64,000 bases of DNA from Naegleria gruberi (taxonomy: Eukaryota). The notes beneath the pieces are model-generated. The model saw only the letters and a program-made list of their open reading frames with translations, was not told where the DNA came from and did not search any database. A program made the translations under genes and the position numbers. Position 1 is the stretch's first letter; every line of letters starts with the position of its first letter. This document shows, in pieces, positions 3,411 through 13,241 of the stretch. The DNA lies in NCBI GenBank assembly GCA_000004985.1, contig GG738850.1; one strand, given 5' to 3'.

Positions 3411-6331
3411 ATGTTTAATGACCATCATCAAATGGCATTCCGATTGGAAGATTCAGAAGGTTTGAATAGACAACAACCTCATCAACAGTTCATGTCCTCG
3501 TTCCAAGTTAATTCTCCAAGTTTTTCCTCTCCGACTCAAATTAGTCCGTCTACTAATTCTTTCCTTCATCCTCAAGAGGTTGTTAATATTCCATTATTTG
3601 ATGCCAATACTCAGGAAACTAATGGAACAAATCAACCAAATGTTGAGAAGAAGGTAAAGAAGAAGAAATCAATTCAATCCTTACCTCAACTTTCCACTAC
3701 CACTGAAAGTACAGAGGCTCAACTGTCTCCTATGGCATGTCAACATTGCAGGTAAGTAGTGGTTGACATAATATGATGACATTCAATTTCAACCTATTAT
3801 CATCAATATTCTCTAGGTCTTTGCATAAAAAGTGTGATAGAACTTTACCAAATTGTTTGAGATGTCTCCAAACAAATCACCTATGTTTTTACCCGGATAA
3901 AAAGAGGAAAAAATCGGAAAGTTTAGACAGTTTGGATTCACAACATAAATCACCAACAGGTACTCAACCACACCAAGAACCAAAGAAGAAAAAGAAGTCA
4001 AATGAACAACAACATCATAATAGCAACAACCAAATGAATAACAATCCAATGATTAATCAACTATTTGGTCAATTGGGTGGACATGTGAATAACCAAATGA
4101 ATAATCAAGCAAACAATCAGATGAATAATCAACAATCTCAAATGAATATTACAGCCGATAATTTTTCCCAAAACCTTCAACAATTAGCCCAAAATATGGG
4201 TCTAGGATTGGGTCACGACATGAATGAGGCAAACCCTATGAATCCTCTGTCCTTAGGTTTACTTTCCTCCAAAATATCTTCACTCAATACTTCCACTCAG
4301 TTGCAATTGCTCAACATGGCAGCTAATGCCTTGTCAGGCAATACCAACTCTCTTAATAACCTCATTTCAAATATACCAGCAGGAATATTGTCGGCATTCA
4401 CTGGTGGGGCAAGACAAACCCCAAATGTGGAATCTGTTACTCCTCTTGTAGCCGTTCAAAATTCTGCTGGTCATTTCCAACATTCTGTTAAACCAATTAC
4501 GGCATTTGTATTGGATATTTATTTCCATACTTATAGTTTTGGATTCCCGTTGATTCCAAAAGAGAGAATGTCAGCCCTATTGGATTTGGTGCTGTTAAAA
4601 CAACAACAGCAATTATCATCTACAGTTGAGATGCAACAACATTGCTCTATTCAAATCAAGACATTCTATGAAAGAGTTGCCAAGCAGTTCTGGTCTTCAG
4701 CTGTTGATATGGAGAAGGATCTTGCAGTATTTTTTGCAGTGTTAGCAGCAACACTTCAATGTTCTGGAAACTTTGTCTATCAACAGTACAAGAATTGTGC
4801 AAACCATTTGGATTTAATTTCATCTGCAGGAGCTGCAATTAATCTTCACCAAATTGGTTCACAATACGAATCTCCATTGGAAAATACTATGGGAGGTAGT
4901 TCTATAAATGGTACAGACTCACCACATGATGATTTATTCATTCAAGACCTTAAGAATAAGTGGTTCAACAATTCAAAGAATATCATTGGTAAATATTTCG
5001 ACGATTTGGACAGCATGTCAATTCCTATTGCTCTTACATTTTTGGTTTACTATCTTGTTGGTGAAGGTGAGCTTCAAAGAGCCAGAATGTACACGAATAT
5101 GGTTGAAAACTTGTGTCAAAAAGTATGGAGTTCAATGAATTGTTTTGGTATTGGCTCTAGAGGTTTTGTAAATGGCTCCAAACCAGTTGTGAGTACACTC
5201 TCCAAAATATCTGGTTCTGGAGGTGCTTCCAGTATCATGTACGGCTTACCTGCCCTTCTTGTTCACAGGTATTTAAGACCTATTGAAATCTTTTTGGCCG
5301 AATTTGAGGAACCAACAAATTCACTAAAAAGAAAGCTGCAAAACATTGGAAATAAGATTAGAATAGATTTGACATTTATTGAAGACTGGGAAAATATTAA
5401 GGATCATGAATTGGAAGAATTAGAAAGATTAATCAAATTCCTAAACAAGTATATTGATTTGCTATTCTCTACCATGATGAATAAGGAATCAATGTTATAC
5501 ATTACAAGCCATTTAACCTTCCATGATGTTGTTATGGATGTTTATAAGCGTGCACAAACAAAGAATGTAGATTCACTCCTCAGATTTGCTGCAGAGGTTA
5601 TTGAAATAACTAAAATCCCTCTATTCACCTTCCTTCCAACAGCCTTCATCAATACTATAATGAAGGCCGTGCAAGTTAGACTTGCCTATGGGAAGCCTTC
5701 AGAAAATCCAAATATCAATTTGAGAGATGACATGGCAGCCCTCAAACTTCTCTCAGCTAAATATCCAGTCATTACCAAACTCTTCGGTGATACTATAAGA
5801 GAAGTAGAAACAGTTCTCTATCTTCAATCCTTTTCTCATTCTAGTATTATGCGTCATATTTTACCAGAGCAACCTTACACTCAAACTACCACAAACAATA
5901 ACAGCAATTCCTCAGAGTTTGATTTTGAAGATAATAATTTTGATATTTTGAACTTTTTGAATGGTGAACCATCACACGGAATGTCTGGCGTGTCTGGAAT
6001 GAATTTTGATGATGAATTGATTGGAGAAATCTTTGGCTTTTCAAACTTGGACAATGAGAGTACAACTTCGAATACCAGTTGCGAATCCATTTTCATTGAT
6101 GGAGAAAAACTTGAAATTCCTTCATGTGTTAAATCAGGTTCTTTCCTACCAATTCTGATTAAAAATCTTAGTAAGCAAAAAGAAGTTTTGCTTCAAAATG
6201 ATCCAAACAAATCAGAGATAATCAAAATGTTGAGAACTCAACTCATTGATGAACTCACACAACATGTAGGAACTGATGAAAATACCAAGCTACTCATTCA
6301 ATTATTTACAAAGAGTTACGTACACAAGTAA
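3411..6331 (+). CDS. Zn(II)2Cys6 (Gal4-type) fungal transcription factor, two exons (3411..3751, 3817..6331)
   Basis: Spliced product reads MACQHCRSLHKKCDRTLPNCLRCLQTNHLC, matching C-x2-C-x6-C-x6-C-x2-C-x6-C with the conserved Pro before Cys4. Downstream is a long region with fungal-specific-TF-like middle homology and an N/Q-rich tract. A 65-nt intron (GTAAGT..TCTCTAG) links ORF 3411..3755 to ORF 3773..6331 in frame. Confidence 0.75.
3752..3816 (+). other. spliceosomal intron (65 nt) inside the Zn2Cys6 DNA-binding motif
   Basis: GTAAGTAG...TTGACAT..TCTCTAG. The stop of the upstream ORF lies in the intron. A split Arg codon (AG|G) immediately follows Cys2. Confidence 0.7.
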
Positions 6332-6870
6332 TACCTACCAATAAAAACTAGTAGATGAAGATAAACATATTAATTTTTATTTTACATAGCGGTAGGGTTG
6401 AACTCAAAGTTAATATTTTTAGAATATTCTCAATCAATTGTTAAAATATTCAAACACAGATGCAATGAATAATTGAATAAGATCCTCATTCTTCAAATTG
6501 CACAAAAGTGATTGAAAAAAAATGCAACAACTAAACGAAGAAGAACCTGCGGAGAATTTTAAAGATTTGATGGAGACTTCTTCCACTCCTCCATTAGACA
6601 GAGAAGTAACAACCAATGAAACAGTAATAGAATCTACAGGAGTAGGAGATGCAGGAGATGAAAAACCAATTGGAAATGCAAAAAGATGGTGGAGAAAGGC
6701 AGCAACGATTCCGATTTTAAAACATTTTGTCTTGTTTTTGCAAACATATGGTACCTTGTTTTTATTTAATCATGCGTATCGGTCGTTGTTTTTTATGGTA
6801 GGTGATTAGAATTGCAATTGAATTATAATTTGTTCAATATTTTCAATGATTTTGTGAATTTTGTGTCAAA

Positions 6871-11774: not shown

Positions 11775-12872
11775 TTACTCTGGATTTTGACCTGAAGCAC
11801 GAATTCTACCAACCAATCTATCAGTAACAATTTGATTTTCACCAACCAATCTCCACTTGCTCTTAAATTTACAACCATTTCTGTAGGCACAAATTCCAAC
11901 CATTCCTTCAATTTCATCATCAGAGGCAGTTTTAGTTTGGAAACATGGAGAAACAGCTTGACATCCATAATAATAATAACGTTGTCCACATGATGAGAAC
12001 ATGGATCCACCATCAACAGTTCCGTATTCCTTCAAACAATCAACTCTACAAGCAACACAATTGACTGGTTTACCATTTGCTGCAGGTTCTTGATTTTCAA
12101 GAGCTTCCATCTTCTTTTTCATACTACGTTTAGCAATTGTTCTGGAGATGGCTGAGAAGAATCTTCCAACCTTTCCTCTTCTCTTTAAACTTTGTTCATT
12201 GATCTTTCTGAGAGCAGCTCTACCAAATCTTCTGACAGCTCTAACAGCTCCTCTAACTCCAAAGTGAGCTCTCTTGGCAGCATTTCCCAAACGTCTGACA
12301 GCTCTCAAAAATCTTCTACCAAATCCTCTTCTTCTTCTCAAAACAACAGCTGCAGCAACAGCAGTTCTCTGAGCTCCACCTCCAACGAATGGTCTTCTAG
12401 ATTCCAAAGTATCTCTATGTGGTCCAGTATATCCATTGAAATTGGCCACTGAATTTTCAATAATAGCTCTGGAACGTCTTCTGAAAAGTCTGAAAACTCC
12501 TCTGAGAAGTCCTTTAGCAATTCTAGCAACAGCTCTTCCAATACGTCTCACAATTCTACCAACTCTTCTGAAAGCTCTTCTCAATCTTCTACCAAATCCT
12601 AAAGTATTGATTTGTTCTTGAGTTAAGAGAGCCAAATATTCCATATCTTCAGCATTGAGTCCTTCAGCATGTAAAGATAATAATTCTGATTCGATTATTT
12701 CTTCCATTTCAGATTGATGTAAAACGGTGGCACCTCTCTTTGCTGATGATGAGGAAGTATCTGCTGGTGATCTACATGATGAACTTGTTGCTTCTACCAA
12801 TGATGATGAAGAACAATAGACGAAACATACAAGAAATACACAAAGGAGTGTCAATCTTGCAATGTTATTCAT
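11775..12872 (-). CDS. secreted polycationic Cys-rich prepro-protein, tandem family member 3
   Basis: The internal ATG at 12872 gives an N-terminal signal peptide (MNNIARLTLLCVFLVCFVYC). The longer ORF to 12974 would bury the signal peptide. Same domain order as members 1 and 2, and the three genes share 3' UTR sequence. Confidence 0.55.
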   Translation of the reverse strand: MNNIARLTLLCVFLVCFVYCSSSSLVEATSSSCRSPADTSSSSAKRGATVLHQSEMEEIIESELLSLHAEGLNAEDMEYLALLTQEQINTLGFGRRLRRAFRRVGRIVRRIGRAVARIAKGLLRGVFRLFRRRSRAIIENSVANFNGYTGPHRDTLESRRPFVGGGAQRTAVAAAVVLRRRRGFGRRFLRAVRRLGNAAKRAHFGVRGAVRAVRRFGRAALRKINEQSLKRRGKVGRFFSAISRTIAKRSMKKKMEALENQEPAANGKPVNCVACRVDCLKEYGTVDGGSMFSSCGQRYYYYGCQAVSPCFQTKTASDDEIEGMVGICAYRNGCKFKSKWRLVGENQIVTDRLVGRIRASGQNPE

Positions 12873-13241
12873 TTTTTCGTTATGTGATATGTTCTTCTTG
12901 TTGTGTTGTCGTTTGTTGTCGTTTGAGAAGTGACTTGATGGATGACGGGACGAAAGGTTTAGGGCACTTTCCACTCTACGGAAAAGAAGTGCCTATTCGG
13001 TATGACACCAGTATGGATATCATTAATTATTTGTAATGTATTTAACGAATATTATGTTGCGTTTTGTATATTTAGGTATGATTGCATCTCTGGAGGACAA
13101 TAGTTGTCAACTCAATTTGTACTGCTTAGTTGAATTATAATTATAAATTCATTAAGATTGGTTCGTAAAATGGTTTAATATATTAAAGAATTAAATATTA
13201 TTCAAATTTTAAATATTTATTTATTTAAAAAAAATAACCCT

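Follow-up and report, generated by a model that had tools for sequence, protein, structure and literature searches.

Gene clusters in which a Zn2Cys6 regulator and a transporter accompany genes for ribosomal peptides are already known from fungi (ustiloxin-type). In fungal Zn2Cys6/MFS clusters, including those of the ustiloxin type, the regulator, the MFS gene and the product genes lie side by side, as they do at the Naegleria gruberi NEG-M locus described here, and the ustiloxin-type product is likewise ribosomal and enters the secretory pathway. The Naegleria locus differs in being located in an amoeba, in having neither tailoring enzymes nor a regular Lys-Arg-bounded core-peptide repeat, in a regulator without the fungal middle-homology domain, and in a transporter that is dispensable for linkage. 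The initial annotation of this DNA saw in it the classic layout of fungal clusters, and suggested that it could be a new cluster type because its products are ribosomal. Since the host is not a fungus but the heterolobosean amoeba N. gruberi, the fungal layout is only an analogy, and the novelty argument as worded was overstated, because the ustiloxin-type clusters were already known.

The zinc-cluster factor Mrr1 of Candida albicans reportedly up-regulates the MFS pump Flu1, which is said to export cationic histatin 5 (PMC5633205). Both cases bring together a zinc-cluster regulator, an MFS protein and cationic peptides or peptide-like proteins, which in Candida form one functional chain, and the Candida case indicates that export by an MFS pump can shield a eukaryotic cell from such a peptide. 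However, histatin 5 is host-derived, the Candida genes are unclustered and Flu1 comes from a different MFS branch, whereas the peptide-like proteins of Naegleria are self-made and efflux here is only putative.

Among animal antimicrobial peptides, Hydra arminin and periculin combine a cationic amphipathic helix with an anionic propiece. Animal pre-pro-peptides such as the cathelicidins (e.g., SMAP-29) resemble the Naegleria proteins in their signal peptide, acidic propiece and strongly cationic amphipathic helix, and sheep SMAP-29, the sequence of which was checked, begins with the eight residues RGLRRLGR that also occur in N. fowleri Cat372. The Naegleria proteins, however, have no cathelin domain or Pfam match, show no evident processing sites, and carry the cationic part internally, followed by a conserved 8-Cys domain; their activity is a prediction. 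The likeness is convergent in style and is not homology.

Naegleriapores and amoebapores, saposin-like proteins with multi-peptide precursors, match the putative role of the array proteins in acting on membranes, as secreted or vacuolar effectors of amoebae that feed on bacteria, and those of Naegleria derive from larger precursors. These pore formers are compact disulfide-locked helical bundles, whereas the array proteins have linear Arg-rich helices, no saposin-B domain and no match to solved folds. Bacterial bacteriocin operons share the proposed logic, in which weapon, self-protection and control are encoded together, but the Naegleria genes are eukaryotic and monocistronic, export is via a signal peptide, and in one lineage the candidate immunity gene lies apart from the weapon genes. 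To our knowledge, free-living protists have few functional gene clusters, and documentation of them is poor.

Here, we propose tentatively, with a confidence somewhat short of even, that the locus is a conserved Naegleria neighbourhood in which a Naegleria-specific Zn2Cys6 factor controls an adjacent array of secreted pre-pro-proteins, that these are membrane-active effectors, and that the transporter is dispensable.

Gene content of the locus

The region consists of five genes, namely a Zn2Cys6 regulator, an MFS transporter and three tandem paralogues for cationic proteins (Table 1). Positions refer to the window, which is the whole 64-kb stretch of DNA that was analysed. Exact matches to XP_002681338 and XP_002681324 identify it as N. 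gruberi NEG-M. The three gene types of the initial annotation were real and contiguous, and all five genes were found at or near the places proposed there. Besides the regulator, the transporter and the three array genes, the interval from 945 to 16350 contained only genes for a kinase and an actin-related protein and one ORF without a Pfam match. No tailoring or biosynthetic enzymes were found in or beside the region by ORF and Pfam analysis of this interval, and no fourth copy of the cationic gene was found within the window. Genes A, B and C all lie on the minus strand and are convergent with the regulator and transporter on the plus strand.

Table 1. Coordinates of the features of the locus in the window
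Feature	Position	Strand	Remarks
Zn2Cys6 (Gal4-type) transcription factor gene, 951 aa	3411..6331; exons 3411..3751, 3817..6331	+	ORFs, splice sites, Pfam
Regulator intron, 65 nt	3752..3816	+	gtaagt...tag; interrupts zinc-cluster coding region; sequence
Zinc cluster, DNA-binding, residues 109-146	3735..3913	+	across intron; Pfam match, six-Cys spacing
DHA3/MFS_3-like major facilitator transporter gene, 694 aa	6522..8688	+	Pfam MFS_1, MFS_3; TIGR00900
Transporter exon 1	6522..6797	+	intron-less L004 orthologue aligns across junction
Transporter intron	6798..6879	+	
Transporter exon 2	6880..8688	+	
Cationic secreted protein A, 338 aa, NAEGRDRAFT_63246	8875..9891	-	ORF; AlphaFold model
A, signal peptide	9817..9891	-	
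A, N-motif	9745..9816	-	
A, acidic propiece	9613..9744	-	
A, cationic block 1	9475..9612	-	
A, GP linker	9385..9474	-	
A, cationic block 2	9163..9384	-	
A, C-domain	8878..9162	-	
Upstream intergenic region of gene A	9892..10163	-	three ATTCGAA sites
Cationic secreted protein B, 400 aa	10164..11366	-	ORF
B, signal peptide	11283..11366	-	
B, N-motif	11208..11282	-	
B, acidic propiece	11076..11207	-	
B, cationic block 1	10971..11075	-	
B, GP linker	10881..10970	-	
B, cationic block 2	10455..10880	-	
B, C-domain	10167..10454	-	
Upstream intergenic region of gene B	11367..11774	-	two ATTCGAA sites
Cationic secreted protein C, 365 aa from first ATG	11775..12872	-	ORF
C, signal peptide	12792..12872	-	
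C, N-motif	12717..12791	-	
C, acidic propiece	12600..12716	-	
C, cationic block 1	12474..12599	-	
C, GP linker	12384..12473	-	
C, cationic block 2	12069..12383	-	
C, C-domain	11778..12068	-	
Upstream intergenic region of gene C	12873..13241	-	divergently shared with actin-related gene 13242..14384

Regulator and transporter genes

The ORFs 3411..3755 and 3773..6331 are a single gene joined by a GT..AG intron, and splicing creates the canonical motif C-X2-C-X6-C-X6-C-X2-C-X6-C. The spliced zinc cluster, CQHCRSLHKKCDRTLPNCLRCLQTNHLC, fits the spacing of the Zn2Cys6 class (C-X2-C-X6-C-X5-12-C-X2-C-X6-8-C), and splicing raised the Pfam Zn_clus (PF00172) score from 20.6 to 32.6 bits, with a gathering cut-off of 21. 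The Zn(II)2Cys6 factor annotated at 3411..6331 was thus borne out as one gene with one intron. The orthologues of N. fowleri and of an uncultured relative have no intron at this point and carry the sequence CQHCRSLHK(K/R)CDR unbroken; identity to the regulator was 62% in N. fowleri and 55% on contig L004 of the uncultured relative. Pfam matched the zinc cluster only, the fungal middle-homology region (Fungal_trans / Fungal_trans_2) being absent, and conservation of the long C-terminal region was limited to Naegleria orthologues.

The MFS gene annotated at 6871..8688 was also real, but its start is at 6522, because the intron-less orthologue spans the splice junction. The protein matched MFS_1 (81.7 bits, cut-off 33.4) and MFS_3 (57.1 bits, cut-off 27), and TIGR00900 (2.A.1.21, drug:H+ antiporter) with E=7.7e-24. 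The last match covered residues 211-363 only and did not reach the full-length cut-off (84.7 versus 319.6 bits), so that this partial match indicates a relative of the DHA3 branch and leaves TIGR00900 membership unconfirmed. A crude hydropathy scan gave 7-8 strongly hydrophobic segments, compared with the twelve transmembrane helices expected of an MFS protein.

Architecture and selection of the secreted cationic proteins

The three secreted cationic genes were found as annotated, except that the array had been extended to 12974, whereas the third copy has its first ATG at 12872. Proteins B and C were 46-51% identical to A, and each of the three had a net charge of +36 to +39. Their layout is a signal peptide (called by eye and from the structure model), an invariant N-terminal Cys motif, an acidic propiece with a charge of -10 to -14, amphipathic Arg-rich helices (+14 to +21 in cationic block 1), a Gly-Pro linker and an 8-Cys C-terminal domain. 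Cys31, the Gly-Pro and the eight cysteines of the C-domain were invariant in the family alignment. In the AlphaFold model of protein A, the cationic segments were predicted as helices. The C-domain was modelled confidently, with a pLDDT of 88.6 for that of protein B. The array proteins had no Pfam match at all, saposin-B included, and structure comparison detected no relative of the C-domain among solved folds. An ENA contig encodes a protein 99% identical to B.

A signal peptide, an anionic propiece and a cationic amphipathic helix, by which precursors of cationic alpha-helical antimicrobial peptides are recognised, are all present in the array proteins. On the strength of composition and amphipathicity, these proteins would be antimicrobial. 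With Arg-Arg pairs across the cationic blocks, there is no obvious clean site at which a free peptide would be released.

Alternatively, the array may not be antimicrobial, with a Cys-rich core serving, for example, the cyst wall, adhesion or polyanion binding, and with cationic stretches that are tolerated low-complexity inserts. In our searches, this previously undescribed family was found only in Naegleria, Willaertia and metagenome contigs, and at least six family clusters keep the N-motif, linker and C-domain without the polycationic middle region, so it may be the Cys-rich core, and not the cationic helices, that carries the conserved function. Cationic block 2 points in the same direction, as it is an insertion found only in the N. 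gruberi trio in the family alignment and evolves at a dN/dS of about 1 in the comparison of gene B with gene C, and so does a C-domain without a known fold relative. On the other hand, dN/dS was about 0.3 in cationic block 1 and in the C-domain, and both are under purifying selection. The hydrophobic moment of the first cationic helix (1.14-1.18) was reached in none of 2000 shuffles, and is extreme and non-random. The 15-residue stretch RFGRRFRRAFRRLRR of block 1 is identical in gene A and the uncultured relative, the regulators of which are only 55% identical, and an acidic propiece always precedes block 1 in the array subfamily, which is typical of stored cationic peptides. We consider a non-antimicrobial array unlikely.

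Conservation of gene order

The regulator and the array are tail-to-tail neighbours in N. gruberi, N. fowleri, N. lovaniensis and the uncultured relative. Cat372, Cat267 and the regulator are in a row in N. fowleri (locus L001; FDP41_000343/344 adjoin FDP41_000345), and the gene order in N. lovaniensis (locus L005) is the same. In the uncultured relative, contig L004 carries the regulator, the transporter, an Arf-like gene and one array-family member, and contig L007, which probably abuts L004, carries one complete array copy and the start of a second. This organism has an RCC1 neighbour in common with N. fowleri and N. lovaniensis, which speaks for an ancestral position of the transporter. 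Of the three-gene synteny that the initial annotation had suggested looking for, the adjacency of regulator and array was found in all three relatives, while the transporter was linked only in some.

Adjacency in one compact genome alone would be weak evidence. As it recurs in three other genomes with differing other neighbours, the adjacency of regulator and array is above chance, and the two look like a conserved unit. Because N. fowleri and N. lovaniensis are such close relatives that they are taken as one, the adjacency rests on three independent lineages only.

The adjacency could also be residual synteny, yet unbroken, without functional coupling. Spacers between genes are about 35-600 bp here, which gives every gene close neighbours; just three independent lineages are comparable; and the family members at four other places adjoin unrelated genes, with no regulator or transporter alongside. 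The regulator and the array are convergent, which rules out a bidirectional promoter common to both, and word and dyad enumeration revealed no common motif in the array promoters that was significant after multiple-testing correction. No site of the CGG-N-CCG type was visible in the array promoters, CGG being a general zinc-cluster preference that may not be that of this regulator. Against this explanation, the flanks that were compared, those of L001, L002, L003, L005 and L007, matched the window only in the regulator, the transporter and the Cat genes, and published comparisons of N. gruberi with N. fowleri report low synteny. The pair was also kept despite removal of the intervening gene in one lineage and insertion of an Arf-like gene in another. 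A lack of coupling is therefore somewhat unlikely in our judgement, though it carries real weight.

Only N. gruberi and the uncultured relative have the transporter between the regulator and the array. Both the gene order (regulator, transporter, array) and the orientations are alike in the two, and most parsimoniously ancestral, which would fit a full three-part unit in which the regulator activates both the cationic proteins and a transporter that expels the cell's own peptides and protects the producer. The efflux-type branch suggested by the TIGR00900 and MFS_3 matches and the reported Mrr1, Flu1 and histatin 5 precedent of Candida albicans also favour it, and a toxin-plus-immunity unit had been put forward in the initial annotation. 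In N. fowleri and N. lovaniensis, however, the transporter orthologues (FDP41_002623 and C9374_002932) lie on a contig other than that of the regulator and array, which stay together, and are flanked by an EF-hand gene and a ribosomal protein L3 gene. This separation is unlike what is expected of the obligate immunity partner of a toxin. Proteins of 338-400 residues with signal peptides need no MFS for export and the acidic propiece already offers self-protection, so both are explained without a pump, and no motif was common to the transporter promoter and the array promoters. The full three-part unit is very doubtful.

The functional pair might instead be the regulator and the transporter, in a response of small-molecule efflux or uptake, with the cationic array as a passenger. 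These two genes are co-oriented, 190 bp apart in N. gruberi and about 35 bp apart in the uncultured relative, and control of MFS pumps by fungal zinc-cluster factors is well known (PMC5633205). In N. fowleri and N. lovaniensis, however, the regulator keeps to the array and not to the transporter, and no zinc-cluster gene is annotated beside the relocated transporter, making such a pair highly improbable.

Discussion

In the arrangement that we prefer, the stable core of the locus would be the Zn2Cys6 regulator beside a tandem array of secreted pre-pro-proteins. Judging from the gene arrangement, the regulator most likely acts on transcription of the adjacent array. The array proteins themselves are most likely membrane-active effectors, antimicrobial or cytolytic, aimed at bacterial prey or competitors, and would exit via the ordinary secretory route. 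The acidic propiece would pair with the cationic helices, leaving the effectors harmless in transit. The DHA3-like transporter is probably an ancestral neighbour, which may be co-regulated in N. gruberi and would have departed from the locus in the lineage of N. fowleri and N. lovaniensis. Since it left in one lineage, it would not be an obligatory partner, and a dedicated immunity pump is unlikely.

A bolder version, in which a dedicated regulator of the zinc-cluster type, an efflux pump and an array of fast-diversifying, self-neutralised antimicrobial proteins form an ancestral Naegleria 'weapon cassette' that is co-inherited and co-regulated, is quite unlikely. If true, discoban protists would gain their first example of a cluster in which a regulator is linked to ribosomally made antimicrobial effectors, and the protein domain on which it is built would have a fold not seen before.

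A regulator that stays by its presumed targets while the surrounding genes differ provides a clean, testable case, and the Arg-rich helices are short enough for direct synthesis and testing. The group in which the searches found the new family, Naegleria and Willaertia, counts the brain-eating N. fowleri among its members. Should the array proteins be membrane-active, they would be a second class of amoebic effectors alongside the saposin-like naegleriapores, and could matter for prey killing and possibly for host-cell damage.

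Gene models and host of the locus

The locus had been read in a fungal frame by the initial annotation. This frame was wrong: exact protein matches identified the host as the heterolobosean amoeboflagellate Naegleria gruberi NEG-M, and the G+C content of ~34% was uniform along the window. The set of genes described was confirmed after correction of organism and gene models: a Zn2Cys6 regulator, an MFS transporter and an array of three genes (A, B and C) for secreted cationic proteins.

The spliced regulator carries the canonical six-cysteine pattern CQHCRSLHKKCDRTLPNCLRCLQTNHLC and matched Zn_clus with a score of 32.6 bits (cut-off 21); no further domain was detected by the Pfam search. 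In the transporter, exon 1 encodes the first membrane segment, and the alignment with an intron-less orthologue ran unbroken over the exon junction. An annotated N. gruberi protein was recovered only for gene A of the array (NAEGRDRAFT_63246). For genes B and C, the transporter ORF 6871..8688 and a separate polycationic ORF, the protein collection contained no exact product, and homology searches returned no NCBI N. gruberi entry for the regulator, the transporter, gene B or gene C. The reference annotation may lack or mis-model these genes.

The polycationic ORF lies ~8 kb past the array and is followed by a tRNA-Leu gene. It reads from a signal-peptide-like start at an internal methionine (MKRFISNLLIALTLAILALTLTADNVNA...) into a body rich in lysine, in which ID.YKKKK-like units recur, and showed neither a Pfam match nor similarity to the array family. 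Elsewhere in the window, two tandem paralogous ORFs of 546 and 571 aa resemble each other closely in their multi-pass membrane regions and have conserved tails at the C-terminus; we guess that their products are receptor-like.

Coordinates of genes and sequence elements in the window
Feature	Coordinates	Strand	Remarks
Regulator	3411..6331; intron 3752..3816		single gene, 951 aa spliced; 65-nt GT..AG intron splits the zinc-cluster coding region
Transporter	exon 1 6522..6797; exon 2 6880..8688		start 6522; intron 82 nt
Array gene A	8875..9891	minus	convergent with regulator and transporter
Array gene B	10164..11366	minus	convergent with regulator and transporter
Array gene C	11775..12872	minus	convergent with regulator and transporter
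C-domain, gene A	8878..9162		eight cysteines
N-terminal cysteine motif, gene A	9745..9816		one cysteine
Cationic block 2 (A, B, C)	9163..9384; 10455..10880; 12069..12383		insertion between Gly-Pro linker and C-domain
ATTCGAA clusters upstream of genes A and B	10023..10117; 11623..11752
Actin-related protein	13242..14384		exact match to annotated N. gruberi NEG-M protein
Polycationic ORF	21069..21572	plus
tRNA-Leu	21719..21801
Third ATTCGAA cluster	51443..52004		around spacer of the two tandem paralogous ORFs
Tandem paralogous ORFs	50148..51788; 52022..53737	plus
Sec61 homologue	55217..56653		exact match to annotated N. gruberi NEG-M protein

Linkage of regulator and array in relatives

In N. 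fowleri, the regulator orthologue FDP41_000345 (62% identical) comes after two array members (FDP41_000343, FDP41_000344) in tail-to-tail orientation, with no transporter between the array members and the regulator. The gene order in N. lovaniensis is the same. An annotated intron lies within the cationic-repeat coding region of FDP41_000343 (10001..11464 on the N. fowleri locus L001), and the first array gene is preceded, at a distance of ~260 bp, by a tRNA-Thr gene (L001 9662..9737).

A contig of an uncultured relative (L004, metagenome sample ERZ27315067) carries the regulator and the transporter in one direction, then an Arf-like gene and, facing the regulator and transporter, a family member which is incomplete and extends past the contig end. 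Contig L007, from the same sample, contains a family member in full and the N-terminal portion of a further one. The last 40 bases of this portion match the end of L004 at 92.5% identity; because of this match the two contigs probably abut. An RCC1-repeat gene is also present on L007, and in N. fowleri and N. lovaniensis it lies a few kilobases past the array.

Little conserved synteny has been described for N. gruberi and N. fowleri (bioRxiv 10.1101/2020.01.16.908186). When the flanks of the N. fowleri, N. lovaniensis and second metagenome loci (L001, L005 and L007) and of two further fetched loci (L002 and L003) were compared with the 64-kb window, nothing matched except the regulator, the transporter and array-family genes. 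As N. fowleri and N. lovaniensis share a high degree of synteny (PMC9928731), the two were counted as one lineage. The constant pair is regulator plus array, present in all three independent lineages.

The position and orientation of the transporter are shared by N. gruberi and the uncultured relative, whereas the orthologues in N. fowleri (FDP41_002623) and N. lovaniensis (C9374_002932) are on different contigs from the array, flanked by an EF-hand gene and a ribosomal protein L3 gene. Since the relative and the N. fowleri lineage also have an outer neighbour in common, the most straightforward history would be an ancestral order regulator-transporter-array, from which the transporter left in the N. 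fowleri/N. lovaniensis lineage. Regulator identities were 62% (N. gruberi/N. fowleri), 55% (N. gruberi/relative) and 58% (N. fowleri/relative), pairwise and unrooted values that do not fix the branching order. The proposal of a three-part module is partly supported: co-localisation is conserved, with regulator plus array as the stable core, and the transporter is probably an ancestral yet dispensable neighbour.

No zinc-cluster or MFS gene was near the family copies at four other places, which comprise an N. fowleri tandem pair and two single genes on metagenome contigs, one of them recurring on a second short contig. Scans of JGI metagenome contigs with regulator and C-domain profiles revealed no further syntenic loci.

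Family and architecture of the array proteins

Genes B and C are paralogues of gene A (46-51% identity to the first copy), and the three products carry a net charge of +36 to +39 and match no Pfam family. A C-domain profile search of 1.84 billion representative proteins matched 26 clusters; all named matches came from N. gruberi, N. fowleri, N. lovaniensis or Willaertia magna, and the others from metagenome or read-archive assemblies. The W. magna member is ABK040_001764, and NAEGRDRAFT_50935 is a further N. gruberi paralogue. No published description of the protein family, or of Naegleria zinc-cluster factors, was found.

Alignment of the family revealed a constant frame of signal peptide, cysteine-bearing N-terminus, variable middle, linker and C-terminal domain. 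The N-terminal cysteine (ATSSSCRSP in the window) and the Gly-Pro of the linker are invariant, and the eight cysteines of the C-domain are invariant or nearly so. Each mature array protein of the window has nine cysteines. As this number is odd, there may be a free thiol, a bond from the N-terminus to the C-domain that would leave one cysteine without a partner, or a disulfide-bonded dimer. AlphaFold predicted a confident globular unit comprising the linker strands and the C-domain (pLDDT ~90 in the full-length model, 88.6 for the domain alone). Neither sequence nor fold search found a relative of this domain among solved structures, nor was one found among predicted viral structures.

In the subfamily of the window, the variable middle consists of an acidic propiece (charge -10 to -14) and an Arg-rich block 1 (+14 to +21; for example RFGRRFRRAFRRLRRVVRRIGRAVGRVVKAAVKLVKKL). 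Helices were predicted for the propiece and the cationic blocks, and the helical hydrophobic moment of block 1 (1.14-1.18) was matched by none of 2000 shuffles. Within block 1, N. gruberi gene A and the uncultured relative have the same 15 residues, RFGRRFRRAFRRLRR. Between paralogues, dN/dS was ~0.3 for both block 1 and the C-domain, which shows purifying selection on these two segments. Block 2 (74 to 142 residues) is present only in the N. gruberi trio in the alignment, and it remained strongly positive while evolving almost neutrally between genes B and C (dN/dS near 1).

Several family members elsewhere lack any cationic region. In the second N. fowleri tandem pair (L006 7004..7756 and 8001..9179), one member has no cationic region and the other, FDP41_002008, has an extreme Gly/Arg/Ser/Lys-rich region; therefore the variable middle diversifies quickly after duplication.

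Signal peptide, acidic propiece and amphipathic cationic helix form the layout of stored cationic peptides in animals. The N. fowleri member Cat372 contains RGLRRLGR, the start of sheep SMAP-29, as confirmed from the sequence; this is a resemblance, not homology.

Promoters and expression

Seven to nine array promoters of four genomes were searched for 6- to 8-mers and 3+3 dyads with spacings of 0-12. No word or dyad was significant once corrected for how many were tried (the best were CGAATAG, AGTTGAC and AAC-N11-TAA), and no CGG-type site was apparent in the array promoters. ATTCGAA occurred 33 times in the window against ~10 expected; upstream of genes A and B, five of these sites cluster in 680 bp. 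The promoters of the regulator, the transporter and gene C contain none. The word may be a general Naegleria promoter element. Neither the full text of papers nor the supplements to one transcriptome study of N. fowleri contained the locus tags.

Origin and role of the transporter

The 694-aa transporter exceeded the Pfam thresholds for MFS_1 and MFS_3. Its top curated relative was TIGR00900 (drug:H+ antiporter-3 group), a partial match far under the subfamily cut-off, followed by EntS, Tap and Mef. Among 8000 candidates scored, the closest relatives outside Naegleria were bacterial MFS_3/DHA3-type proteins (a Firmicutes bin and Streptomyces), which hints at an old transfer from bacteria, although eukaryotic relatives beyond these 8000 may have been missed. 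Acquisition of the locus from fungi by gene transfer was rejected, as these nearest relatives are bacterial and the regulator lacks the fungal middle domain.

The regulator would control transcription of the array, whose products would act as membrane-active effectors. The initial annotation had suggested that the transporter could serve self-protection in a toxin-plus-immunity unit. This reading found no direct support. Proteins with a signal peptide need no MFS pump for export, the acidic propiece would give built-in self-protection, and the transporter has been relocated in N. fowleri and N. lovaniensis; a dedicated immunity role is therefore disfavoured. As a precedent for such a regulator-pump-peptide chain, the zinc-cluster factor Mrr1 of Candida albicans drives the MFS pump Flu1, which expels the cationic peptide histatin 5 (PMC5633205). 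Co-regulation of the transporter in N. gruberi is compatible with the evidence against a dedicated immunity role.

Product genes linked to a regulator are known; what is new here is the unexpected lineage and the undescribed protein family.
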